Positions 9,137-60,399 are shown, numbered from the stretch's first letter. The stretch is DNA of 64,000 nt from Phycisphaerae bacterium (GCA_016873295.1 VGXM01000006.1:44525-108524), one strand, 5' to 3'. Notes: generated by a model not told the origin, from the letters alone. Numbers and translations: made by a program.

Positions 9137-9511
9137 ATGGGCACTCTCACGAAGAAGCAGTTGATCGAGAAGATCTCCGCGCGGACCAGGATCCCCCGGA
9201 CCGAGACGCGCCTGGTCGTCCAGGAGTTCCTCGACCAGATCATCCTCGAGCTCAAGCGCGGGCACCGCGTCGAGTTCCGCGACTTCGGCGTCTTCGAGGT
9301 GAGGATCCGGGGCGAACGCACCGCCCAGAACCCCAAGACCCTCGCCCAGGTCCGCGTGCCCGCCCGGCGCGCCGTCCGGTTCAAGATGGGTCGGCTCATG
9401 CGCGAGAGCGTCGCCACCGAGCCCAAGCCCGCCCCCGACGCCCGCGCCGACCACGCGCCGACGCCCGACGTCGTCACCGTGGGCACCCGGGCCGGGAAGT
9501 CCCGCGTCTAG
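9137..9511 (+). CDS. HU/IHF-family DNA-binding protein with an extended Pro/Ala-rich C-terminal tail
   Basis: The core MGTLTKKQLIEKISARTRIPRTETRLVVQEFLDQIILELKRGHRVEFRDFGVFEVRIRGERTAQNPKTLAQVRVPARRAVRFKMGRLM is a classic HU/IHF fold. It is followed by about 35 extra residues. Confidence 0.85.
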   Translation: MGTLTKKQLIEKISARTRIPRTETRLVVQEFLDQIILELKRGHRVEFRDFGVFEVRIRGERTAQNPKTLAQVRVPARRAVRFKMGRLMRESVATEPKPAPDARADHAPTPDVVTVGTRAGKSRV

Positions 9512-9514
9512 CCA

Positions 9515-10732
9515 TCAGTCGGTCAGGGCCGGCGCCGCCCGCGGGGCCGACGCGGTCAGCGCCAGCATGCGCTCCAGCGCGATCAGCGCCAGCCGCCGCG
9601 CCTCGGGGTGCACGCGGATGACGTTGACCTCCCTGGGCGAGCCGTCCCTGCTGAACGCGCCCGCCAGGTGATCAAGCACCCAGCACAGGTGGGGCTGGTC
9701 GATGCGGTACATGGTGGTGCACAGGCACTGGCAGTCGGAGAGGATGCGGACCGACACGCCCCGGGCCGCCGACTCGCGCGCCAGCCGCGCGACCAGGTTG
9801 TGCTCCGTCCCGATCGCCCAGCGCGACCCCGGCGCCGCCCCGCGCACGCTCCGGATGATGAACTCCGTCGACCCCGAGAGGTCCGCCCGGTCCACCACCT
9901 CCTTGCAGCACTCGGGGTGGACCAGGATGGTCGTCCGCGCGCGCTCGGGGTGGGCCGCGTCGTCGGCGCGGACCTGGTCGCAGTGCTCCGGGCGGAAGAG
10001 CTTGTGCACCGAGCAGTGCCCGGCCCACAGGACGACCCCGGCGTCGAGCACCTGCCGCGCCGTGGCCCCGCCCAGGGGCTCGCCCTTTCGCGCCAGCCTC
10101 GGGTCGTAGACGCACGAGCGCCGCTCCACGTCGATCCCCCGGGCCGCGGCGGTGTTCCGACCCAGGTGCTGGTCCGGCAGGAAGAGCACCTTGACGTCCT
10201 TGCCCCGCGAGAGGGCCCAGGCAAACGCCGCGTCCGCGTTGCTCGACGTGCAGCACGCCCCGCCACGCTCCCCCACGAACGCCTTCACCGCCGCCGTCGA
10301 GTTCACGTACGTGATCGGGACGATCTTGCCGGACCACCCCTGGTCCTTGAGCGACTCGTGCAGGCGGTCCCAGGCGTCGACGGCGTCGTCGTGGTGGGCC
10401 ATGTCTGCCATGCTGCACCCGGCGGACAGATCGGGCAGGATGACCTTCACGCTCTCGGGCGTGAGCATGTCCGCCGTCTCGGCCATGAAGTGCACGCCGC
10501 AGAACACCACCCAGCGCACGCCCCCGTCCCGGCATCGCTCGGCCGCGGCCTGCGAGAGCTTGAGTGAGTCGCCCGTGATGTCCGCGTGCCGGATGACCTC
10601 GTCCACCTGGTAGTGGTGCCCGAGGATCAGCAGGCGCTCGCCCAGCTCACGCTTGCGCGCCGCGATCCGCACCGCCAGCTCGCCCGGCGAGGCCTTCACG
10701 TAGCTCTCTGCGAGTGTCGGCTGCCACAGCAT
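9515..10732 (-). CDS. nadA: quinolinate synthase NadA
   Basis: Diagnostic segments are LLILGHHYQVDEVIRHADITGDSLKLS...VVFCGVHFMAETADML and three conserved Cys-containing segments. The ATG is at complement 10730-10732. Confidence 0.95.
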   Translation of the reverse strand: MLWQPTLAESYVKASPGELAVRIAARKRELGERLLILGHHYQVDEVIRHADITGDSLKLSQAAAERCRDGGVRWVVFCGVHFMAETADMLTPESVKVILPDLSAGCSMADMAHHDDAVDAWDRLHESLKDQGWSGKIVPITYVNSTAAVKAFVGERGGACCTSSNADAAFAWALSRGKDVKVLFLPDQHLGRNTAAARGIDVERRSCVYDPRLARKGEPLGGATARQVLDAGVVLWAGHCSVHKLFRPEHCDQVRADDAAHPERARTTILVHPECCKEVVDRADLSGSTEFIIRSVRGAAPGSRWAIGTEHNLVARLARESAARGVSVRILSDCQCLCTTMYRIDQPHLCWVLDHLAGAFSRDGSPREVNVIRVHPEARRLALIALERMLALTASAPRAAPALTD

Positions 10733-15575: not shown

Positions 15576-16691
15576 CTACGCCGCATCGCCGAACCACACG
15601 TCGCCCCGCCCGTCGTACATCCGCACCACGGGGATCCCCGCGTCGCGGAACACCGCGCTGTTGTCCCACAGCCGGGGCTCGATGCTGTTGGAGCTGAGCA
15701 CCACCGCCCCGGGCTGACGCCCCAGCGCTTCCTCGCGCGAGACGATCGGGTAGTTCCACAGGCGCGAGCCGTGCAGCCGCTCGTCGTCGTCGATGATGCA
15801 CTCCACCCGCACCGGCGGGTCGATCAGCACCGACCCCAGCCCGCGCGTGTGCTTCCCCGCCCCGTACAGCGCCACCCGCGCAAACCCCCGCGATCGGCAC
15901 CCCTCCAGCGCCTCCCGCGCCCGACCCGTCCACGAGCGGTTCAGCAGGTCCGACGCGTACAGGTTCACCCAGTGCGCCTCCGCCAGACGCGCCGTGTCCG
16001 CCTCCAGCGGCGACAGGTCCAGCGGCCGACCCCCCCCGATCGGCTCGTGACCGGGGAACCCCGTCCACGCACGCGACAGGTACAGCCGGCAGTCCGCCCG
16101 GTCACGCCCGTCGATCTTCGCCCTGAACTCCCCCTGCTCCCGCGGCAGGCGCGTGAAGTGCTCGTGATAATGCGACAGGTCCGCCCGCGACCACAGCGCC
16201 CCCATGCACCGGGCCACCCAGTAGATCTCGTTGTCGCACCAGTTGTGGTAGTAGCCGTCAAAGACCGGCCCACGACCGCCGTACATCGTGTCGATCCAGC
16301 GCCGACCGAAGAACGGACTGCCGCAGTAGTGCGGGGCCCGCAGGTACCCGTCGCCGTGCGGCTGCATCACCCCGAACCCGTCGGCGAATCGGGAATGGAA
16401 CTGCTCCGCCAGCTGCCCCGCCCAGTGGTTCGGATCGGGCCTCATGTCGTCGCCCCCGGTCACGACCAGCGACGCCGACCCCGGCACGACCTCCCTGCAC
16501 AGCCGGTTCACCGCCCAGGCCCACCCGCGGTAGTCGTCCACCCGCAGCACGCGGTCGGCCTCCGGGGCCTCGAACCGCACCCGGTCCTGCAGCAGCGCGA
16601 TCCGGTATCCCCGCTCCTTCCAGAGCGGCAGGTTCCGCCGGCACATCTCCGGCGACGCCGACGGGATCGCAAACCACACCTCGTGCCCCAA
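15576..16691 (-). CDS. uncharacterised glycosyltransferase-like protein (paralog C) with one copy of the shared C-terminal module
   Basis: A TTG start aligned to the GTG of paralog B gives (M)GHEVWFAIPSASPEMCRRNLPLWKERGYRIALLQDRV...LVVTGGDDMRPDP...GVMQPHGDGY...GSPFFGRRWIDTMYGGRGPVFDGYYHNWCDNEIYWVARCMGALW. The C-terminal module is ARVALYGAGKHTR...IIDDDERLHGSRLWNYPIVS...GAVVLSSNSIEPRLW...GIPVVRMY. Confidence 0.7.
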   Translation of the reverse strand: MGHEVWFAIPSASPEMCRRNLPLWKERGYRIALLQDRVRFEAPEADRVLRVDDYRGWAWAVNRLCREVVPGSASLVVTGGDDMRPDPNHWAGQLAEQFHSRFADGFGVMQPHGDGYLRAPHYCGSPFFGRRWIDTMYGGRGPVFDGYYHNWCDNEIYWVARCMGALWSRADLSHYHEHFTRLPREQGEFRAKIDGRDRADCRLYLSRAWTGFPGHEPIGGGRPLDLSPLEADTARLAEAHWVNLYASDLLNRSWTGRAREALEGCRSRGFARVALYGAGKHTRGLGSVLIDPPVRVECIIDDDERLHGSRLWNYPIVSREEALGRQPGAVVLSSNSIEPRLWDNSAVFRDAGIPVVRMYDGRGDVWFGDAA

Positions 16692-16866
16692 CGGACCCTC
16701 CGCGCAGTATCCCCCAACCCCCTATCGGCCTATCCCGCCGAACCCCTTGACCACACCCCCTCTCCTCCCGGAGTCCCGATCACGCCCCCCCCGGTGCTCT
16801 CCGGGGCGAGCGCCGCTGGTACCGCGGCTTGCTCGGGCTCGCGACGCGCGAAACGAAGTGCCCATC

Positions 16867-17051
16867 ATCAAGGCCCGACTCAGCGGCCGCTGTAAACCAG
16901 ACCGCCCGACTCTCTCCCGCCCGCCGAGAGTCTCGCCCCGAGAGGACCGCCGGGCCCCCGTTTCGCCAAGGGGTTGGCCCACACGCCGAACCACAGAGCG
17001 CTCTCGCGAGCGCGCCCCCTCCGCCCGCAGCGCGATTCCCCACGCGGTTTG
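16867..17051. repeat. copy 1 of a 185-bp direct repeat (R1), about 360 bp upstream of the tail-fibre-like gene
   Basis: catcaaggcccgactcagcggccgctgtaaaccagaccgcccgactctctcccgcccgccgagagtctcgcc...cgctctcgcgagcgcgc...acgcggtttg is near-identical (2-3 mismatches) to 19831..20016. It contains the perfect 12-bp palindrome cagcggccgctg, the hairpin gactctc-N11-gagagtc and the palindrome ctcgcgag. Weaker similarity extends to about 16849..17062. Confidence 0.85.
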
Positions 17052-17312
17052 ACGGGCTTCCCGCCGCCCCTCCGGGCCCCCGATCCGCAAACGAACAGGG
17101 CCGCGCCCCTTTGATGCGGCCCTTGAAGCTCCATATCCGCAACCACCGCAAGCCGTACGGGCGGCGGTTTCCGCGTTCTGCTGGCAAAGTGGCTGGTGAC
17201 GCGCAACAGCCGCCGGGCCCAAGGGGCAATAATGTGCAAGGCGCTACGAAGGACGGAGAGTACGCCACGAAACGCCCCGCCGCTCGTATGCTCGCGATAC
17301 GTGAAAAACGGC

Positions 17313-17341
17313 TTGACCAAAGCCCGCTATCATTGTAGACT
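17313..17341 (+). promoter_or_regulatory. candidate sigma70-type promoter for the tail-fibre-like gene
   Basis: TTGACC, a 17-bp spacer and TAGACT lie about 75 bp upstream of the ATG at 17415. This is a sequence-only guess. Confidence 0.25.
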
Positions 17342-17414
17342 GTTGTGTCCGCTTTGCCGCCAGGCCCGTCGTTGATTGGCCTGGGAAGAGGTCCGAACCA
17401 ACGGAGGTCATGCC

Positions 17415-19685
17415 ATGAAGCGGTTCATCGCCACGCTGGGCTTGGTATCCATTCTCTTCTCTGCAGACGGCGTGGCCCAGACACCCCTGGGAACGGGTTT
17501 CACGTACCAAGGGGAACTGAACAACGCCGGCAACCCCGCCAACGGGGCCTATGACCTGCGGTTCCGGCTCCTCAACGCCGCCGCGGGCGGAAGCCAGGTC
17601 GGCAATACCCTCTGCGCCGACAACGTTGCGGTGACCAACGGCCGCTTCACGGTTTCGCTGGACTTCGGCGCACAGTTCGCCGGGCAGCAGCGGTTCCTTG
17701 CCATCGAAGTTCGGGCCGACACGGGGCTCGACTGCTCCAACGCCGCCGGCTTCACCGCCCTCCTGCCTCTGCAGGAACTCAGCGCCGTCCCCAACGCCGC
17801 CTTCGCCCTCGCCGCCACCACGGCCACGACCGCGACCACCGCGAGCAACGCCACGCTGCTCAACGGGCAGGGGGCGTCCTTCTATCAGAACGCCTCCAAC
17901 CTCACGGCCGGCACACTCCCCGGTGGCCTGCTCAGCGGGATCTACTCCAGCCCCCTGACCTTCAGCAACGCGGGCAACGCTTTCACCGGGTCGTTCTCGG
18001 GCTCGGGCGCGGGTCTGACAGCCCTCAACGCCTCGAACCTGGGAACCGGAACGCTCGCCGACGCACGCCTCTCCACCAACGTCGCCCTGCTCAGTACCCC
18101 CCAGGCCTTCACCGCCGGCAAGACGTTCTCCGGGGGGCTTTCGACCAACGCCTTCACCCTGACCACGGGCGCGGCGGCGGGCAGCGTGCTCCGCTCCGAC
18201 GCGGGCGGCGCGGGGACCTGGCAGCCCCCTCCGCCCCCATCCGGCGCGGCGGGCGGCGGCCTGGCGGGGACGTATCCCAATCCCTCGATCGCCGCCGATG
18301 CGGTCCTGAGCGGGAACCTCGGTAGCGATCCCGCGTCGCTCGGAAGGGTCTCCGGGGGCGCGGTGTACACCAACGGCGATTTCGTGGGGATCGGCACCGC
18401 CACGGGCATCGGCGCCGCCCGCTTCGTGGTCAGCCAGAACACGGGCGGTTTCGGCGGGATGTATGTCAACACGTCGGCCGCAACGGGGTTGCCGTTCTAC
18501 GGCTACGCCCAGGGCGGCTCCATCGCCGCGTATCACTACCTCGACGGCGGGGAGGGCAACAAGTGGAAACTCATCAATGGCGGGGTCCGGATGACGGTGA
18601 CGAGCGGCGGCGATGTGGGCATTGGAACCACGAGCCCCACGTCCCGGCTTGACGTGGTTGGAAGCGGAGGGGACGCGTTGCTGGTCACCAACACCGGAAC
18701 CGGCCGCGGGGCCACCATCAACGCCCAGACCGGCACGGCGCTCTGGGCCAACACGACCAGCGGCATGGCGGGCGTCGATGCGCGCAACGCGAATCCATCG
18801 GGCATGGGGGTCTATGGCCTGGCCAGCGCGAGCACCGGCACGGCCTACGGGGTAGCGGGCCAGAGCCTCAGCGCGGGAGGGATTGGCGTCCTGGGCCACG
18901 CCAGCGCCGGCGGCGGTGAGACCTACGGCGTCGCGGGCCGGTGCGACAGCACCGGAGGGGCGGGCGTCTTCGGCCAGGTCACCGCCACGACCGGCGCCAA
19001 CTACGGCGTGTTCGGCCGGAGCGACAGCACGTCCGGGACCGGTGTCTACGGCGCGGCCTGGGCCAACAGCGGCACGATCTACGGCGTGCACGGCTACGCG
19101 AGCGCCTCCAGCGGCGGGTACGCTGTCTTCGCCAGCGGCCGATCCGGGGCCAGCGGCACCAAGTCGTTCCGCATCGACCACCCTGACGACCCCGAGAACA
19201 AGTACCTGCTCCATTACAGCACCGAGTCGCCCGAGATCCTCAACGCGTACTCGGGCACGATCGCCCTGGACGCCGCTGGCGGGGCCGTGGTCGAACTGCC
19301 GCGCTACTTCGCCAAGATCAACAGGAATCCGCGGTACACGCTCACCGCCGTGGGCGCTCCCATGCCGATGCTGCACGTGGCCGAGGAGATTGACGAGGCC
19401 GCGCTGATCTCAGGGGCCACGGCCGGACCCGCCGACGTGGCGCCCCTCTGCTCGTTCCGGATCGCGGGCGGAGCCCCCGGGCGCAAGGTCTCCTGGCGCG
19501 TCGAGGCGGTCCGCAACGACCGCTGGATCCAGCAGCACGGCGCGCCCGTCGAGGTCGAGAAGTCGGGCGCCGAGAAGGGCACGTACCAGCATCCGGACCT
19601 CTACGGCCGGCCCGCCACGGAGGGCATCGGGTTCCGTCCCAATCTCAGCGGTGGCAAGGCTCCGCCCAGCCCGGACCATCCGTAG
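17415..19685 (+). CDS. secreted glycine-rich tail-fibre-like surface protein (beta-helical repeat protein)
   Basis: An acggaggt RBS precedes the ATG. The signal peptide is MKRFIATLGLVSILFSADGVAQ. Long Gly/Ser/Thr/Ala/Asn repeat tracts include LTAGTLPGGLLSGIYSSPLTFSNAGNAFTGSFSGSGAGLTALNASNLGTGTLADARL. The segment VGIGTTSPTSRLDVVG is typical of phage tail-fibre-like proteins. Repeated YGVxG motifs occur (TAYGVAGQS, ETYGVAGRC, ANYGVFGRS, TIYGVHGYA). The C-terminal domain reads KSFRIDHPDDPENKYLLHYSTESPEILNAYSGT. The overlapping antisense ORF 17244..19376 is rejected. Confidence 0.8.
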   Translation: MKRFIATLGLVSILFSADGVAQTPLGTGFTYQGELNNAGNPANGAYDLRFRLLNAAAGGSQVGNTLCADNVAVTNGRFTVSLDFGAQFAGQQRFLAIEVRADTGLDCSNAAGFTALLPLQELSAVPNAAFALAATTATTATTASNATLLNGQGASFYQNASNLTAGTLPGGLLSGIYSSPLTFSNAGNAFTGSFSGSGAGLTALNASNLGTGTLADARLSTNVALLSTPQAFTAGKTFSGGLSTNAFTLTTGAAAGSVLRSDAGGAGTWQPPPPPSGAAGGGLAGTYPNPSIAADAVLSGNLGSDPASLGRVSGGAVYTNGDFVGIGTATGIGAARFVVSQNTGGFGGMYVNTSAATGLPFYGYAQGGSIAAYHYLDGGEGNKWKLINGGVRMTVTSGGDVGIGTTSPTSRLDVVGSGGDALLVTNTGTGRGATINAQTGTALWANTTSGMAGVDARNANPSGMGVYGLASASTGTAYGVAGQSLSAGGIGVLGHASAGGGETYGVAGRCDSTGGAGVFGQVTATTGANYGVFGRSDSTSGTGVYGAAWANSGTIYGVHGYASASSGGYAVFASGRSGASGTKSFRIDHPDDPENKYLLHYSTESPEILNAYSGTIALDAAGGAVVELPRYFAKINRNPRYTLTAVGAPMPMLHVAEEIDEAALISGATAGPADVAPLCSFRIAGGAPGRKVSWRVEAVRNDRWIQQHGAPVEVEKSGAEKGTYQHPDLYGRPATEGIGFRPNLSGGKAPPSPDHP

Positions 19686-19830
19686 CGGCCCGGGGCTCGC
19701 CCTCGATCGCGGTGCGACGGCAGAACTCAGCGACTTCGATGAGCATGGTGGTTCCAGTGCCGCATGGAGCTGGAGAAGCCCACCACTGTACGAACGCCCG
19801 CGCCCGAGCCGTTTCGAACGAACTGCCCGG

Positions 19831-20016
19831 CATCAAGGCCCGACTCAGCGGCCGCTGTAAACCAGACCGCCCGACTCTCTCCCGCCCGCCGAGAGTCTCG
19901 CCCCGAGAGGACCGCCGGGCCCCCGTTTCGCCAAGGGGTTGGCCCACACGCCGAACCACAGAGCGCTCTCGCGAGCGCGCCCCCTCCGCCCGCAGCGCGG
20001 TTTCCCACGCGGTTTG
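19831..20016. repeat. copy 2 of the 185-bp direct repeat (R2), immediately downstream of the tail-fibre-like gene and upstream of the CgeB-like glycosyltransferase
   Basis: Near-identical to 16867..17051. The two copies are 2964 bp apart in the same orientation. Confidence 0.85.
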
Positions 20017-20661
20017 CGGGGGGCTCCCGCGGGCCCTCATCCATGCGGGCAACTCTCGCCTGCACGACCTCTCAGGACGCGCCCCCGGCTCGGCTGGCGC
20101 ACGTGTTTGGCACCCCTCACAAGCCGCGAGGATGGTACAAACCCCCCGAAACTCCGATCCGGCGGGCCCCGCCGGGCCGATCCAACTCCGCAGCCCGTGT
20201 CCACTCCTCCCGCGCCAACCCGGCGTCTCGACGCCCCCGCGCTCCCAACGAGCCCCACGCGCGAGCGTGGGGACTCCGCGCCTGCCCCCCACTGCGCCTC
20301 TCCTGCCCCGTGGGCCGCGCTCCACCAGTCGCTGGCCCGCTGGCGCGCTGCCGCGACCGACGCCGACGCGCTCCTCGCCGCGGCCCAGGCGCTGACCAAC
20401 CTCGCCCTCACCACCGCCGCGCGCGACCACCTGGCCCTGCTCCCGCAACCCGGCGCCCCGCCTGATTCGAACGCCGCGCCGCCGGACGCGCCGATCCCCG
20501 CCGACCATCTCATCGCGACCGCCCAGGCCAACGCGCGCGCTCTCTCGGAACGCGGCGTCGAACTGTCCCTCCCTTTCGACGCCTGGCGGGCACGGCTCGC
20601 CCACACCTTCTTCTACCGGGCCGCCGACGGCAACGTCGTCAGGCGCAGGCTCCTGCCCGGC

Positions 20662-22650
20662 TTGCCCCCCTCCTGGTCGCGCTTCAACGACGACCTCGCC
20701 GCCGCCCAGAGCGTGCCGCTGGCCCTCGCCGACCCTTCCGACCCCATCGGGCGCGACGCCAAGCCCGTGATTCTCGAGGGCCTCGACCCACCCTGGCTCT
20801 TCGGGCGGGTCATGCGCCTCACGCCCCCCAGCCCCGCCGGCTACCAGCCCTGGGTCGTGCTCGTGCAGGCCGACCCGCTCCAGTTCCTCGACGGCCTGGC
20901 CCTCGCCGACCTGCGCACGGAACTGGCCGACCCGCGCCTGTCGGTCTTCGTGGGCCCGACCGCCGGCTCGGGCGTGCTGGCGTTCCTTCGAGCCCGTCTC
21001 GGCACGTCGATCCAGGCCACGCCCCTGCGCCTCCCCACCACCGCCGCCCGCACCAATCCGCCCCTCGAACAGGTCCTGACCCAGGCCCTGCGCGAGCAGG
21101 AGGCGGATCTGGCGTCCCTCCTGGCGCAGAACCGGCGCACCTACGCCGGTCGCGACGCCACGTGGTGGTCGCGGCGGTTCTCCGATCCGGGCTCGACGCC
21201 GCTGCGGGCCCTGATCCCGACGACGCGGTACTCCACCTTCGTGCGCCACTCGGCCCAGGACCTGGCCGCCGCCCTGCGGGAAGCCGGCTGGCGCGCCGAG
21301 GTCCTGGAGGAGCCCGACCCATCCAGCCAGCACTCCACCAACGGGTACGCCCGGGCCGTGCGCGCGCTGGAGCCCGACCTGGTGGTGCTGATCAACTACG
21401 AGCGGGTCACGGTGGCGCACGCGATGCCGGCGGAGACGCCCGTGCTGACCTGGGTACAGGACTCGCTGCCGCACCTCTTCGAGGGGCGGGCGGGCGGCCC
21501 GCTGGACCTGGTCGCCGGGTGCATCTCGGCGGGGGCGATGGAGGCGCGGGGGTATCGGCCCGGGCACGCGCGGGAGGCGCCGGTGCCGGCGCGGGCGGCG
21601 AAGTTCCACGTGGGACACGTCGACGCGAATGCGCGCGCGCGGCTGACGTGCGACGTCGCCTACGTCGGGCACCAGAGCCGGACGCCCGAGGAGTTCCTCC
21701 GGGCGGGGCTGGCGGCGGTGGGGGACGACCCGATCATGCACCGGGTGCTGGAGTCGCTGTACGTGCGCACGAGCGACGCCGCGGCCCGGGTGCTGGACGT
21801 GAACCTCTTCGACGCCCTGGCGGGGGCGGTGCACGGGGCGTGGTGGGCCGCGACGGGGGAGGCGCCCCCGGCGGAGCGGGCCCGGCGGCTGCTGTTCGGG
21901 CACGCGGTGCCGCTGGCGGACCGGCTCCTGAGGCACACCACGCTGGCGTGGGTCGCGGAGATCTGCCGTCGGCGGGGGTGGTCGTTCCACCTCTACGGGA
22001 CCGGGTGGGAGCGGCACCCGACGCTCTCGGCGTACGCGCGCGGGGCGGTGGAGCACGGGGAGGAGCTGCGTGGCGCGTATTCGTGCGCGCGGGCGCACGT
22101 GCACGTCTCGTCGACGGCGATGGCGCACCAGCGGGTGTTCGAGTGCGCCCTGTCGGGGGGGCTCCCGCTGTGCCGGCTGGCGCTGCCGGAGCTGCAGCAA
22201 TGGTCGCTGGTCGGGGCGTGGTGGGCGATGGAGCGCGCGGGGACGCGGCCCCGGCACGACCGCGAGGCGTTCCCCACGCTGGCGGTCGCCGACTCGCCCG
22301 AACTGATGATGGCGACGCGGGTGCGCCAGCTCGTGCGGGGCGGCGAGGCGCCCGCGGTGGTCGATCCGAACACCTGGCCCGGGTGGCTGCGGGCGGCCCT
22401 GCGGCGCGACGACCCTCCCGACCGGAGGGTGATGGCGGCATGGGTGATCGGGGACCTGTCCGAATCGTGCTTCTGGGACCGGGCGAGCCTGGAGGCCCGG
22501 CTGGAGAGGGCGGTGACGCGCCCGGAGTGGCGCGACGACCTGTCGCGGGGGATCGCGGAGCGGGCGTGCACGGCCGAGGCGTTCGCGCGGTCGATCCCGG
22601 GGTGGGTGGCGCGGGCCTTCCACGCGGGGACGGCGGCGGCGGCGGCGTAG
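20662..22650 (+). CDS. CgeB-like (DUF3880 plus Glyco_trans_1_2-type) glycosyltransferase; the start is uncertain
   Basis: The C-terminal region ...PVLTWVQDSLPHLFEGR...DVAYVGHQSRTPEEFL...LYGTGWERHPTLSAYARGAVEHGEELRGAYSCARAHVHVSSTAMAHQRVFECALSGGLPLC resembles CgeB/spore-maturation-type GT1-like domains. The frame is open back to 19939 but overlaps repeat R2. The first canonical in-frame start after a protein-like stretch is TTG 20662 (GTG 20713 and ATG 20809 also possible). The protein-like sequence from about 20290 may indicate an unusual start or a frameshift. Confidence 0.55.
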   Translation: MPPSWSRFNDDLAAAQSVPLALADPSDPIGRDAKPVILEGLDPPWLFGRVMRLTPPSPAGYQPWVVLVQADPLQFLDGLALADLRTELADPRLSVFVGPTAGSGVLAFLRARLGTSIQATPLRLPTTAARTNPPLEQVLTQALREQEADLASLLAQNRRTYAGRDATWWSRRFSDPGSTPLRALIPTTRYSTFVRHSAQDLAAALREAGWRAEVLEEPDPSSQHSTNGYARAVRALEPDLVVLINYERVTVAHAMPAETPVLTWVQDSLPHLFEGRAGGPLDLVAGCISAGAMEARGYRPGHAREAPVPARAAKFHVGHVDANARARLTCDVAYVGHQSRTPEEFLRAGLAAVGDDPIMHRVLESLYVRTSDAAARVLDVNLFDALAGAVHGAWWAATGEAPPAERARRLLFGHAVPLADRLLRHTTLAWVAEICRRRGWSFHLYGTGWERHPTLSAYARGAVEHGEELRGAYSCARAHVHVSSTAMAHQRVFECALSGGLPLCRLALPELQQWSLVGAWWAMERAGTRPRHDREAFPTLAVADSPELMMATRVRQLVRGGEAPAVVDPNTWPGWLRAALRRDDPPDRRVMAAWVIGDLSESCFWDRASLEARLERAVTRPEWRDDLSRGIAERACTAEAFARSIPGWVARAFHAGTAAAAA

Positions 22651-25708: not shown

Positions 25709-25833
25709 TTCGAACCACGGACATGACCGTCCCACGACGGTCGGGGCTCCGACCGACAGTCGTGCCCGAAGACACCACTGTGCCCCGAGCGGCACAGTCG
25801 TGGCACGGGTTGTGGCACGCCATTCTGGCCGTA

Positions 25834-26201
25834 GTGCGAGTCGGAAGAACGTGCACCAGGGCGCCGGCGGGCGCCGCGGGTGCCACGGGCGATCCGCCCG
25901 GCGGATCGCCCGTGCCGGCCGTTCGGACGGGCCTCGAACAGCCGCACGGGTCATCGGGCGAAGCGCCCGATGACCCGTGGCACCCGGAGCGCCCCGTCCA
26001 CGGACTTCCAGCTCGCGTCACTCGTCGTGCGAGTCGGAAGAACGTGCACCAAGGCGCCGGCGGGCGCCGCGGGTGCCACGGGCGATCCGCCTTGCGGATC
26101 GCCCGTGCCGGAGTCCGGACGGGCGTTGAACAGCCGCACGGGTCATCGGGCGAAGCGCCCGATGACCCGTGGCACCCGGAGCGCTCCGTTCACGGACTTC
26201 C
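25834..26201 (+). repeat. two tandem copies (A1 25834-26009, A2 26027-26201) of a 176-bp hairpin-rich REP/MITE-like element
   Basis: The unit is gtgcgagtcggaagaacgtgcacc...cacgggcgatccgcc-cgg-cggatcgcccgtg (14-bp perfect stem)...cacgggtcatcgggcg-aag-cgcccgatgacccgtg (16-bp perfect stem)...cggacttcc. The termini form short inverted repeats (gagtcggaag / cggacttcc). The copies lie about 125 bp downstream of the plus-strand GT2 gene, in its orientation. Confidence 0.85.
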
Positions 26202-26230
26202 GGCGCACGCCACGAGCCCGCGGCCCCCGC

Positions 26231-27109
26231 TCAACGCCCGCGGGCAATCCCGTGCAGCGCGATCCCCGCGGCGACCACGACGTTGAGCGAATCGACGCCG
26301 GGCGTCATGGCGATCCGCGCGCGAAGGGCGCAGGCCGCCAGCGCACCCTCGCTCAGCCCCGGGCCCTCCGATCCCAGCACCAGCGCCCAGCGCCGTCCCG
26401 GCGCGATGTGGACCTCGCCCAGGTCCACCCCGCCCGCGGGGGACAGGGCCAGCGTGTCGAACCCGGCGTCGGCGAGCAGCGACAGCGACCCGGGCCAGGG
26501 GTCCAGCGTCGCGAACGGCACACGCAGCGCGTGCCCGATCGACACCCGCACCGCCTTGCGGTACAGCGGGTCGCAGCAGCCGGGGGAGAGAAGCACCGGG
26601 GTGCCGGGCGGCGCCAGCGCGGCGACGCATCGGAAGACGCCGCCGACGTTGTCGTGGTTGGTCAGATCTTCGAGAACGACCGCCCCGGGAGCGTCGCGGA
26701 GGAGCGTGTCGGCGGACGCCGGCGGCAGCCGCCAACCCAGCGCCAGCACCCCCCGGTGCACGTGGAACCCGACGATCGAGTCGAGCACCGCCTGCGGCGC
26801 GACGTACACGGGCGTGCCCGGCGGGAGCGAATCGAGCCCGCCACGCAGGGCGCCGACGCGGGCCTCGGCGACCAGCACAGAGTGCACCGGGAACCGCGAG
26901 CGGAGCAGTTCGAGGACGACCAGGGCCCCCTCGGCCACGAACAGGTCGGCGCGGTCGGGCGCGTGGGCCTGAGCCCTGAGGTCGCGGTCCTTGAGGTTGG
27001 CGAACCCGGCCAGGGCCGCGCGGTGGTCGGGGTCGTCCAGGGAGGCGACGCGGATGAGGCGCACGGGGGAGGGTACTCGGCCCCGGACCGAGGCACGATC
27101 CGGGAACAC
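26231..27109 (-). CDS. TrmH/SpoU-family RNA 2'-O-methyltransferase
   Basis: SPOUT motifs are present: LEDLTNHDNVGGVFRCVAALA, LVLGSEGPGLS and VDSLNVVVAAGIALH. The start may be the GTG at 27064 (VRLIRVASLDDP) rather than 27109. Confidence 0.85.
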   Translation of the reverse strand: MFPDRASVRGRVPSPVRLIRVASLDDPDHRAALAGFANLKDRDLRAQAHAPDRADLFVAEGALVVLELLRSRFPVHSVLVAEARVGALRGGLDSLPPGTPVYVAPQAVLDSIVGFHVHRGVLALGWRLPPASADTLLRDAPGAVVLEDLTNHDNVGGVFRCVAALAPPGTPVLLSPGCCDPLYRKAVRVSIGHALRVPFATLDPWPGSLSLLADAGFDTLALSPAGGVDLGEVHIAPGRRWALVLGSEGPGLSEGALAACALRARIAMTPGVDSLNVVVAAGIALHGIARGR

Positions 27110-27180
27110 ACGCGGTGGGGCGCGGCGACCCTACGCTCGCGCGTCGGGCTCGTCGGGAGGCACGCAAGCGGAGGTCGGGC

Positions 27181-28059
27181 ATGGAATGGTGGCAGGCGGT
27201 GGTTCTGGGGATCGTCGAGGGCGTCACCGAGTACCTGCCCATCAGCTCGACCGGGCACCTCGTGATCACCGCCGACCTGCTCGGGCTCAAGACGCCGGAG
27301 AAGCAGGCCGCGGTCGACGCCTTCAGCATCGCCGTGCAGGGCGGCGCCATCCTCGCGGTGCTCACGCTCTACTGGGGGCGTGTGCGGCACATGGTCCGCG
27401 GCGTGTTCGGGAAGGACGCCACGGGGCTCCGCCTCCTCGTCAATCTCTTCCTCGCCTTCCTCCCAGCGGCCATCATCGGGCTGGCGGTGCACGGGTGGGT
27501 CGAGGCCCACCTGATGGCCACCGGGCCCGTGGCCCTGGCCCTGGTGGTGGGCGGCGCGTACATGATGGGCATCGACCAGCTCCGGCAGGGGCGGTTCGGG
27601 CTGCCGCCCGCCGACGCGCGCGGCAAGGGCATCGACGACCTCACGCCCCTCAACGCCCTGACGATCGGGCTCCTCCAGTGCATCGCCATGTGGCCCGGCA
27701 CCAGCCGCAGCATGATGACGATCACGGGGGGCATGCTCGTGGGGCTCAGGCCCCGGGCGGCGGCGGAGTTCAGCTTCCTGCTCGGGCTGCCCACGCTGGG
27801 GGCCGCGGCGGCCTACGCGGTCGCCAAGAACCTCTACCGCGCCCTGGCCAACGACGAACCCAGCATGTTCGAGGTGCTGGGCGCGCCCAACATCATCATC
27901 GGGCTGGCGGTCGCGACCCTCTCGGCGGCCCTGGCCGTCCGATGGCTCGTCGCGTTCCTCAACCGCCACGGATTGTCGGCGTTCGGATGGTACCGCCTGG
28001 CCCTGGCGGCCCTGCTCGTCGTGCTCAGCATCGGCGGGTTCGTGAAGGTGGCGGGGTAA
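27181..28059 (+). CDS. uppP: undecaprenyl-diphosphatase UppP (BacA)
   Basis: MEWWQAVVLGIVEGVTEYLPISSTGHLVI...FSFLLGLPTLGAAAAY is an 8-TM BacA. The ATG at 27181 has a ggagg RBS. The upstream extension of ORF 27115..28059 is rejected. Confidence 0.9.
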   Translation: MEWWQAVVLGIVEGVTEYLPISSTGHLVITADLLGLKTPEKQAAVDAFSIAVQGGAILAVLTLYWGRVRHMVRGVFGKDATGLRLLVNLFLAFLPAAIIGLAVHGWVEAHLMATGPVALALVVGGAYMMGIDQLRQGRFGLPPADARGKGIDDLTPLNALTIGLLQCIAMWPGTSRSMMTITGGMLVGLRPRAAAEFSFLLGLPTLGAAAAYAVAKNLYRALANDEPSMFEVLGAPNIIIGLAVATLSAALAVRWLVAFLNRHGLSAFGWYRLALAALLVVLSIGGFVKVAG

Positions 28060-28349
28060 CGGCGAATGCCGCGAGATCCCGAGGCGCCGACGAGCGACGC
28101 GTCTCGACCCGCCGACTCTTCGGAGCCTCCTTCAGCGTTCCGGCGCCGTCAGGCGCGGGGCCCATCCGGGCGGAGCCCGCGGATCCGCGGGACGCCCTCG
28201 CCGACGATGATCAACCGCCGCTCCACCGCCGAACGCTTCTCGAAGTTGGCGGCGGGCCCGGCGTAGTCCACGCCGCGCGTCATCGACGCGACGCCCCGGG
28301 CGGGGCGGTCGGGCCTAAGAGGCGTCGGCCGAGGGTAGTGGCGCGAGTC

Positions 28350-28717
28350 GGAAGTCCGTGGACGGATGCGCTCCGGGTGCCACGGGTCATCGGGCGCTTC
28401 GCCCGATGACCCGTGCGGCTGTCCGAGGCCCGTCCGGACGCCGGCACGCGCGACCGCCGGGCGGATCGCCCGTGGCACCCGCGGCGTCCGCCGGCGCCTT
28501 GGTGCACGTTCTTCCGACTCGCGCCACGAGTGGTGTGTGTCGGAAGTCCGTGGACGGATGCGCTCCGGGTGCCACGGGTCATCGGGCGCTTCGCCCGATG
28601 ACCCGTGCCGCCGTTCGACGCCCGTCCGGACGCCGGCACGGGCGAGCCGCCGGGCGGCTCGCCCGTGGCACCCGCGGCGTCCGCCGGCGCCTTGGTGCAC
28701 GTTCTTCCGACTCGCGC

Positions 28718-28718
<1 letters not shown>
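28350..28718 (-). repeat. two tandem copies (B1 28350-28527, B2 28542-28718) of the REP/MITE-like element, reverse-complemented on the plus strand, directly downstream of asnS
   Basis: This is the reverse complement of the 25834-26201 unit: ggaagtccgtggacgg...cacgggtcatcgggcgcttcgcccgatgacccgtg...cgggcggatcgcccgtggcacc...ggtgcacgttcttccgactcgcgcc. The last base of B2 is the first base of the asnS stop codon (cta at 28718-28720). Confidence 0.85.
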
Positions 28719-30223
<1,505 letters not shown>

Positions 30224-30272
30224 CGCGCACCTCCTGGGAGGGTCGATGGTAAGGGGCCTGGCGGTGTGTGTC

Positions 30273-30493
30273 GGAAGTCCGTGGACGGATGCGCCCCGGG
30301 TGCCACGGGTCATCGGGCGCTTCGCCCGTGACCCGTGCGTCCCGGGTGCCACGGGTCATCGGGCGCTTCGCCCGTGACCCGTGCGGGTCGGGTGTCGGGA
30401 TCAGGGCGGCACGGGCGACCGCCGGGCGGATCGCCCGTGGCACCCGCAGCGCCCGCCGGCGCCCTTGCGCACGCTCTTCCGACTCACGCCACT
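30273..30493 (-). repeat. one copy (C) of the REP/MITE-like element with an internally duplicated hairpin arm, between the asnS start and the DUF1559 gene stop
   Basis: ggaagtccgtggacggatgcgccccgggtgccacgggtcatcgggcgcttcgcccgtgacccgtgcg is followed by a second copy of the cccgggtgccacgggtcatcgggcgcttcgcccgtgacccgtgcg arm, then ...cgggcggatcgcccgtggcacc...cttccgactcacgccac. It ends at the stop codon of the 30492..31403 gene (cta at 30492-30494). Confidence 0.8.
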
Positions 30494-42032: not shown

Positions 42033-42119
42033 CGGTGGGGTGGCCGAGCGGTTGATGGCACCGGTCTTGAAAACCGGTTTGGGCGCAAGTCCAACGTGGG
42101 TTCGAATCCCACCCCCACC
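42033..42119 (+). tRNA. tRNA-Ser (anticodon TGA)
   Basis: Manual fold: acceptor ggtgggg/ccccacc; D-arm gcc-gagcggttgat-ggc; anticodon stem ccggt/accgg with loop cttgaaa; long variable arm; T-arm gtggg-ttcgaat-cccac; discriminator g. The CCA is not encoded. Confidence 0.85.
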
Positions 42120-51782: not shown

Positions 51783-52567
51783 GGCGCGGCCCCCGGGGCG
51801 GCCCGCCCGGCGTCGCGCTGGGCCGTCTCCAGCGCCCGGCGCACGTAGTCCTGGTGGGTCGGGTCCTCCTCGGTGGGGTGGTCGCTCATGACCACCCCGT
51901 CGCGCAGGCGGATGATCCGCCCGGCGTTGCCCGCGATGTCCTCCTCGTGCGTGACCATGATGATGGTCTGCCCCTCGGCGTGGAGCTGGCGGAAGAGCCC
52001 GATGATCTCGTCGCCGGTCTTGCTGTCGAGGTTGCCCGTGGGTTCGTCGGCCAGGATGATGGCGGGCTCATTGACCAGGGCCCGCGCGATGGCGACTCGC
52101 TGGCGCTGCCCGCCCGAGAGCTGGTTGGGGCGGTGCTTCATGCGGTCGGCGAGGCCCACCCGCTCCAGCGCCCGCCGAGCCCGGGCCCCCGTCCCCACCC
52201 AGTAACGCCGGCTGTAGATCAGCGGCAGCTGGACGTTCTTCAACGCCGTGGCCCGCGGCAGCAACTCGAAACTCTGGAACACGAACCCGATCAGGTCGTT
52301 GCGGACGCCCGACAGCTCGCCCACGCTCATGCGGTGCGTGGGGCGACCGGCCAACTCGTACACGCCCCTGGTGGGCTGGTCGAGGCACCCCAGCACGTTG
52401 AGCAGCGTGCTCTTGCCGGAGCCCGAGGCGCCCATGATGGCGACGAACTCGTTGCGTCGGATCTCGAGGCTCATGCCGCGAAGCGCGTGCACCTTCTCGG
52501 CGCCGATGCGGTAGACCTTGTGCAGGTCGGCGATGCGGATGATGAGGGGGTGCTGCGGGGCGACCAT
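51779..52567 (-). CDS. ABC transporter ATP-binding protein, MacB/LolD type
   Basis: Walker A is [10 protein letters not shown]. The signature is [15 protein letters not shown]. Walker B is [11 protein letters not shown]. Confidence 0.9.
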
Positions 52568-55128: not shown

Positions 55129-55230
55129 ATGCTCCCTGCCCTGAGGAAGCACGCCGATCGCGGCCCCGCACGGGCCACGGGCCACGCGCCGGATGGCCCG
55201 TGGCACCCGCACCGCGCCGATTACACTTGC
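55129..55230. repeat. degenerate fragment related to the REP/MITE-like element
   Basis: ggatggcccgtggcacccgcaccgcgccg matches about 18 of 20 bases of gcggatcgcccgtggcacccgcggcg from the element. It lies in the divergent region between the glycosylase and pdxA. Confidence 0.3.
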
Positions 55231-60159: not shown

Positions 60160-60399
60160 GGCTCGCAGGCCCGGGCCTCCACCGGGGACAGAGCCCCGCG
60201 GGAGCTCATCGGCGCGGTCGGGCGGTCGCCACGCCCCCCCCGCGATGCGCCCCTTGCGCGCGGACGGGCTGGTCCGGCCGGGAGAGGCGTGAACGTCCGA
60301 GAGCCACGCCCCGGGCGCCACGGGCCAACGGGCGCCCCGCTCGTGACCCGTGACGGCTCCGGCATGCTCCCCCAGGTCGGGAAGCACGCAGCCCCGCGC

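Follow-up and report, generated by a model that had tools for sequence, protein, structure and literature searches.

In Salmonella Typhimurium, the wzy gene lies between two perfect 113-bp direct repeats, at which a 2558-bp deletion takes place and a circular form can be detected (PMC12074656). Excision of wzy depends on a repeat and leaves one copy of it behind, wzy-deleted cells amount to about 1 in 500, and the deleted form is selected by O-antigen-specific phage (PMC12074656). Neither a recombinase nor known attachment (att) features were found at that locus (PMC12074656). The present analysis deals with a similar arrangement in a stretch of DNA of 64,000 nt (72.8% GC), here called the window in its entirety, from a metagenome-assembled genome (MAG) of a Phycisphaerae bacterium (GCA_016873295.1). 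In this window two near-identical direct repeats, R1 and R2 (R, when the repeat unit itself is meant), enclose a single gene, X (protein accession for the locus, MBM4107900.1). With a probability of roughly 0.6, R1 and R2 would be the terminal direct repeats of a lineage-specific insert between divergent genes of a glycan cluster, that is, a local duplication linked to insertion which would make the enclosed gene excisable or amplifiable.

The likeness to wzy lies in a single surface-related gene, within a unit of about 2.5-3 kb, placed between long non-coding repeats of the same orientation that lack internal symmetry, in the absence of an adjoining recombinase, and in a location between unrelated chromosomal genes. 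The two loci differ in that R is longer (186 nt) and imperfect, in that the cargo is here a secreted tail-fibre-like protein and not an O-antigen polymerase, and in that the host is an uncultured Phycisphaerae. Furthermore, excision, the circle and the single-repeat allele were seen in Salmonella and not at this locus.

Other amplifiable or deletable units bounded by direct repeats are the type II amplifiable units of DNA (AUDs) of Streptomyces and the cap locus of Haemophilus influenzae, located between copies of IS1016. As in these, a repeat-gene-repeat layout permits RecA-dependent tandem amplification or deletion, but their repeats measure 0.8-2 kb or are coding insertion sequences, whereas R is a non-coding sequence of 186 nt. 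Defence systems are a frequent content of chromosomal integration hotspots, or variable islets flanked by conserved core genes. Such islets share with this locus the conserved flanks and a cargo that varies, although they are usually described without long terminal direct repeats, and the insert studied here consists of one gene framed by repeats.

The repeat pair and the insert that it bounds

The following features define the locus; L006 and L008 are related loci described below, and L003 is a contig from an independent assembly.

16828..20020, whole lineage-specific insert (R1, leader, X, tail and R2), about 3.2 kb, delimited by BLAST and alignments against L006 and L008
16866..17051, plus strand, R1, the upstream copy, with a degenerate extension over 16852-17072 (repeat finding, alignment, self-BLAST and frame plot of third-position GC)
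19831..20016, plus strand, R2, the downstream copy, with a degenerate extension over 19817-20038 (same methods; also present in the independent contig L003)
17415..19685, plus strand, gene X, 756 aa, with a signal peptide
19686..19816, plus strand, tail from the stop codon of X to R2, 131 nt of unique sequence
16692..16827, left conserved flank, upstream region of a minus-strand gene; the match to L006 covers 16600-16835, including the gene end, and is 89% identical
20021..20196, right conserved flank, upstream region of a glycosyltransferase gene; the match to L006 covers 20020-20300 and is 93% identical

Reading of the sequence, repeat finding, MAFFT alignment and self-BLAST of the window (E 1e-94) agree that R1 and R2 form a direct repeat in the same orientation. 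The unit of 186 nt carries two mismatches between its copies, which are spaced 2965 bp apart; the near-identical repeats of the preliminary description are thereby confirmed, its coordinates being right to within 1 nt. A core of 169 nt is identical (16866-17034 = 19831-19999) and is followed by the two mismatches, at 17035 (A/G) and 17038 (C/T), after which the copies are identical again up to 17051/20016. Degraded similarity in the same register continues past the core on the left (16852-16865, 11/14 matches, the bases AT/GG at 16864-16865 being specific to each copy) and on the right (17052-17072, 15/22 matches with one gap). In a free local alignment, the 100 nt that adjoin R1 and R2 on either side score no better than shuffled sequences, and the adjoining in-register stretches are a suggestive, and the sole, hint of similarity beyond the edges. 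Such a profile, in which the core is perfect, the two mismatches cluster near one edge and the similarity degrades at both edges, would fit a duplication that is very recent; gene conversion between R1 and R2 is the more likely explanation, and in that case the copies would be recombining.

Third-position GC periodicity is strong in the flanking genes and over 17415-19685, and the same frame plot gives no coding periodicity in 16700-17400 and 19690-20250. Both copies are therefore non-coding, as had been proposed from the outset.

The relatives of this locus were found as orthologues of the glycosyltransferase, and their contigs were fetched and compared with the window. In the closest one, L006 (a Logan contig of SRR25998717), the glycosyltransferase has 74% protein identity and both flanks are in common with the window. 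Homology to L006 breaks off at about 16827 and is found again from about 20021-20024, which places the left boundary of the insert 24-38 nt outside R1 and the right boundary at the end of R2. At the same site (470-2795), L006 holds 2.3 kb of lower-GC DNA with an unrelated cargo of two genes, one coding for an ABC-type ATPase that matches the AriA and PtuA models, and the other for a partner of 338 aa with a weak AriAB match; this pair is a candidate PARIS/Septu-like defence gene pair. The upstream region of this cargo is its own and contains TTGACA, and the L006 insert has neither R nor flanking repeats. L008, with 68% protein identity, keeps the entire left-hand cluster and has a 378-aa gene divergent beside the glycosyltransferase, with no X and no R. 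In the more distant L160 and L162, the region upstream of the glycosyltransferase is a compact, divergent and insert-free intergenic region. Since these four relatives hold no cargo or another one, R1-X-R2 is best described as one lineage-specific insert at a variable intergenic site.

Independent assemblies bear on the reality of this structure. A contig of the Joint Genome Institute (JGI) from another sample, L003, matches the window over 12.8 kb with 99.98% identity; its start falls inside R1, and it runs through X, R2 and the glycosyltransferase. In Logan assemblies of three runs, the left flank, X and the right flank are found as separate contigs, and each of them breaks off after exactly 30 nt of the sequence common to both copies, or exactly 30 nt short of the first base that differs between them. 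Such breaks are those of a k=31 graph of a two-copy repeat, and the repeat is therefore real. The same contigs could be taken to mean that the linear order R1-X-R2 is in part a choice of the assembler, the true state being a tandem (R-X)n array, or a chromosome with a single R accompanied by a circle of 2965 bp. Assemblers usually traverse such graph loops once, the k=31 contigs all break off after 30 nt of R, and the JGI contig starts inside R1. This explanation is nevertheless very doubtful, since the tail, R2 and the right flank are joined in two independent assemblies (the window and L003), a 2965-bp circle without a replication gene would not be maintained, and an integrated single copy accounts equally well for the bases that distinguish R1 from R2 at the two edges.

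A separate observation concerns the X contig, which in two samples (L002, from Logan SRR7985589, is equivalent to window 17072-19860) starts at 17072, where 17005 was expected from the R1/R2 mismatches. Position 17072 is the exact end of the degraded extension of the repeat, which suggests a polymorphism or an alternative junction at 17071/17072 in those two populations.

Leader, dispersed-element and att-site explanations

A different function of R had been put forward in the preliminary description, namely that of a regulatory leader or small RNA gene existing in duplicate; as a cis-acting leader or an RNA, R would place X and the glycosyltransferase under common control. The region between R1 and X contains the following features.

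17073..17414, plus strand, leader of X, 63% GC against 73% in the window
17099-17123, stem-loop GGGCCGC...GCGGCCC in the leader of X
17313-17341, sigma-70-like site TTGACC-17-TAGACT, the only one in the region, 74 nt upstream of the start of X
17403-17407, GGAGG ribosome-binding site of X

The stem-loop and the promoter-like site had been correctly reported to follow R1, and the motifs named for R itself were all found: the 12-mer palindrome CAGCGGCCGCTG at 16881 (R1) and 19846 (R2), the hairpin GACTCTC-N11-GAGAGTC at 16908 (R1) and 19873 (R2), and the palindrome CTCGCGAG. Motif searches of the window returned the R1 and R2 copies and, in addition, one match to the 12-mer with one mismatch, at 52220. 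R had been called rich in dyad symmetry, but its folding stays at the level of dinucleotide shuffles (z -0.14 for the plus-strand RNA, -1.0 for the minus-strand RNA and +0.64 for DNA), so that its symmetry is no more than its composition gives.

The leader or RNA explanation has in its favor that R1 and R2 are oriented alike and each precedes a plus-strand gene, and that selection could also yield a perfectly identical core of 169 nt with degraded edges. It is quite unlikely all the same. Rfam gives no match at the gathering score in the whole window, nor at E<=1 in 16650-17450, and neither strand of R folds better than shuffles. No promoter-like site lies within R, the sole sigma-70-like site of the region being outside it, and X possesses this site as its own. 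The distances to the two genes are unequal as well. The end of R1 is located 363 nt upstream of the ATG of X (17415), within the 350-600 bp previously given for both copies, whereas the end of R2 is only about 180 nt upstream of the GTG at 20197 that serves as the glycosyltransferase start in the gene calls of independent assemblies. Moreover, the orthologous glycosyltransferase of L006 retains a conserved upstream region of 175 nt without R. An R-like sequence was found at 0/79 loci of X homologues and was also absent beside the X paralogue of the same MAG, and on these grounds a conserved leader of the X family was rejected. The proposal of a duplicated leader or small RNA gene is thus unsupported by Rfam, folding, promoter content, conservation or gene distances.

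A gene fragment was considered as well and rejected. The six-frame translation of R, used as a concatenated query against 5.8 billion protein clusters, has no match at E<=0.01. This sets aside the origin of R from a duplicated gene's 3' end, which the preliminary description had mentioned as one refuting outcome.

Further copies of R were sought in several collections. Self-BLAST of the 64-kb window gives no third copy, and none occurs around the X paralogue, where about 5 kb of a different contig from this MAG were covered, the inspected part of this genome being about 70 kb. BLASTN and nhmmer found no match to R in the fetched loci (1.57 Mb), and distant BLASTN found no match to R1 and the leader in plasmids and phages. 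The covariance-model and BLASTN searches proposed for the repeat unit have thus returned neither an RNA family nor a homologue in the collections searched. An exact pattern of 23 nt from the core of R has 0 matches in the genome_contigs, metagenome_contigs and viral_contigs collections, a weak negative, as the JGI contig L003 contains this 23-mer and is yet absent from metagenome_contigs. In that last collection, the glycosyltransferase also led to no close relatives.

These searches bear on the idea that R is a small dispersed element, akin to miniature inverted-repeat transposable elements (MITEs) or repetitive extragenic palindromic (REP) sequences, present in two copies by chance around X or forming a composite with it. 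Like REP sequences, bacterial interspersed mosaic elements (BIMEs) and MITEs, R is a non-coding intergenic repeat of about 200 nt, and the genome does possess another intergenic repeat family of this kind, S, with a similar unit length. The earlier statement that intergenic DNA is otherwise unique is thus wrong, as five copies of S (unit length about 192 nt) occur within 25830-30492. With only about 70 kb inspected, a dispersed element could be argued for on this basis. It is nonetheless highly improbable, because no copy of R besides R1 and R2 was found in the window or beside the paralogue, there is no match in any collection, and both copies found sit at the ends of one insert, which would not be expected from independent insertions of a rare element. 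Nor does R have the usual hallmarks: terminal inverted repeats and a target-site duplication were absent when its ends and flanks were read by eye, and there are no strong hairpins or hairpin excess. As a separate candidate, R as the insertion sequence of a composite or pseudo-compound transposon was rejected (186 nt, no coding periodicity and no protein match).

The boundaries of the insert raise one more explanation, namely that R1 and R2 are att-like sites of a site-specific recombinase encoded elsewhere, with the flank junction serving as a site of cassette exchange. Two unrelated cargos, R-X-R here and the PARIS/Septu-like pair in L006, have nearly equal insertion boundaries, and the repeats either coincide with the insert ends or are at most a few tens of nucleotides away from these. 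This is unlikely too. Unlike in an integrase-mobilised island with its attL and attR sites, the Pfam scan of 30 genes of the window gave no integrase, transposase or resolvase, and there is no tRNA or tmRNA target at the insert, the nearest tRNA being at 42034. The L006 insert occurs without flanking repeats and without R, and an identity over 186 nt far exceeds known core sites. The comparison with integron cassettes is also incomplete. They are single-gene units between same-orientation repeats (attC, about 60-140 nt), as is the case here, but the window has no integron integrase, and R was not seen by eye to contain the R'' (RYYYAAC) and R' (GTTRRRY) consensus in the inverse order proper to attC. 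R is furthermore longer than the usual attC and has no single-strand hairpin stability, as the value of +0.64 for DNA indicates, and X has its own promoter and a long leader. In a wider form of this explanation, judged to be just as unlikely, the flank junction would be a dedicated cassette-exchange site and R the handle of a new system, either independent of a recombinase or acted upon in trans. It would be consistent with unrelated, self-promoted cargos at nearly the same positions and with no recombinase gene or known att site having been found nearby.

Gene X, its neighbors and the S family

X is the only gene in the insert (16828-20020) and has no Pfam, NCBIfam, PHROGs or PADLOC family. 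Its sequence relatives are numerous, with 859 database proteins at E<=0.001, often several per contig and mostly in Phycisphaerae; the family is multi-copy in Phycisphaerae and in other phyla. Its C-terminal 150 residues, with the motif FRIDHPxDPENKYL, form a domain without a Pfam model, which is found in Phycisphaerae, Armatimonadota, Bacteroidota, Chlorobiaceae and Anaerolineae, in three loci of one Methanoregulaceae MAG, and in 70 IMG/VR viral contigs, giant-virus MAGs included. The AlphaFold2 model of X is poor overall (predicted local distance difference test, pLDDT, of 53), the N- and C-terminal domains being confident. Predicted structures of phage tail-fibre-like proteins are among its matches, with a best E of 2e-7, and in the PDB it has only weak matches, the best being an R-pyocin fibre (E 0.026); a sequence search of the PDB gave no match. 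On this weak basis, tail-fibre-like is a plausible name for the protein.

Whether X-family genes are generally framed by non-coding direct repeats was addressed by self-BLAST of all loci, and this idea was rejected, with four loci having flanking repeats. Judged by eye from the sequence and the ORFs, those of L068 look like coding paralogues and those of L071 like overlapping contig ends. The L028 repeats (172-345 and 9420-9593; Phycisphaerales) resemble, by eye, reverse-complement 5S rRNA genes. Those of L050 (1816-1936 and 12581-12701; Phycisphaerales) appear by eye to be a REP-like GTGCCAC...GTGGCAC hairpin element, similar in style to the S family of the window.

The genes on either side of the insert belong to a glycan-modification cluster that comprises an FkbM methyltransferase, two paralogous unknowns, the CgeB-like glycosyltransferase, an HldE-like kinase/adenylyltransferase and a GT2 gene, with PilZ, GT2 and sulfotransferase genes further to the left. 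The two that flank the insert are the following.

15576..16691, minus strand, gene of 371 aa and unknown family, divergent from the insert, within the glycan-modification cluster
20197..22650, plus strand, glycosyltransferase (Glyco_trans_1_2, CgeB-like), 817 aa in the gene calls of L003 and L004

The glycosyltransferase has an uncertain start: there is an in-frame ATG at 20134 besides the GTG at 20197, and coding periodicity is found only from about 20260. In L008, the call for this gene begins far downstream of sequence that still aligns with the N-terminal region of the window's glycosyltransferase. On the other side, two adjacent minus-strand genes of unknown family, coding for 382 and 371 aa, are paralogues in tandem and share 72% of their nucleotides (repeat 14909-15595/16042-16719). 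This pair lies directly to the left of the insert, and its arrangement is kept in L008.

The S family has a unit of about 192 nt with several near-perfect hairpins and an RNA fold z of -7.05. It was located by self-BLAST at these positions.

25830-26021 and 26022-26213, plus strand, S double copy in tandem
28337-28528 and 28529-28718, minus strand, S double copy in tandem
30263-30492, minus strand, S single copy
55165-55219 and 60307-60362, S fragments

The S copies are found mostly between gene ends, and the SpoU methylase and BacA genes (26231-28059) lie between the two double copies, which are inverted relative to each other. S has no Rfam match and looks like a REP/BIME-like family or a bidirectional terminator.

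Possible recombination between the repeats

Direct repeats that exceed about 100 nt can recombine in a RecA-dependent manner, and the unit that they enclose can thereby be deleted or amplified. If R1 and R2 are the terminal repeats of the insert, the duplication would have arisen together with the insertion by one of two routes: either the single crossover of a circular molecule carrying R and X into a resident R, or a duplication generated during insertion. An exchange of the RecA type between the two copies would release X as a 2965-bp circle, leaving one R, and unequal exchange would amplify X. Thus, the gene for this secreted protein would be losable and regainable within the population, as in the case of Salmonella wzy. 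The effect of the repeats would be mechanical, not regulatory. The preliminary description had already regarded R1 and R2 as a substrate for recombination, and structurally this proposal is sound; it gains strength from the coincidence of the segment R1 to R2 with a lineage-specific insert, in whose place relatives have either nothing or another cargo. The phase variation deduced from it would be a further step.

Several points weigh against the terminal-repeat interpretation. The empty or alternative sites in L006, L008, L160 and L162 do not contain a single copy of R, so that R is no more than a putative scar or target of excision. No deletion or circle junction and no amplification were seen, in contigs built with k=31 that break in R and cannot report heterogeneity. 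The path from the left flank through R1 into X is supported solely by the window's own assembly, given that the JGI contig begins inside R1. In addition, deletion alone would be a one-way process, and phase variation would require either re-integration of the circle or re-acquisition of the gene. Finally, a cis-regulatory role of R keeps a small probability when only sequence analysis is considered.

What the repeats mean for the organism depends on which of these processes takes place. If they are merely a scar of the insertion, the locus would represent an ordinary structural polymorphism. Should the cassette-exchange explanation be true, a population could reversibly drop and regain a phage-receptor-like surface protein. 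If X is removed or amplified through R1 and R2, as the terminal-repeat interpretation implies, this would be a second, phylogenetically remote case of repeat-mediated gene excision of the wzy type, set in uncultured freshwater Phycisphaerae and affecting a secreted tail-fibre-like protein within a surface-glycan cluster. The candidate defence pair that a sister lineage holds at the same site would make this intergenic region a small hotspot for traits possibly bearing on the interaction with phages, and as such it may be of use in mapping the islets of defence and surface variation in Planctomycetota.

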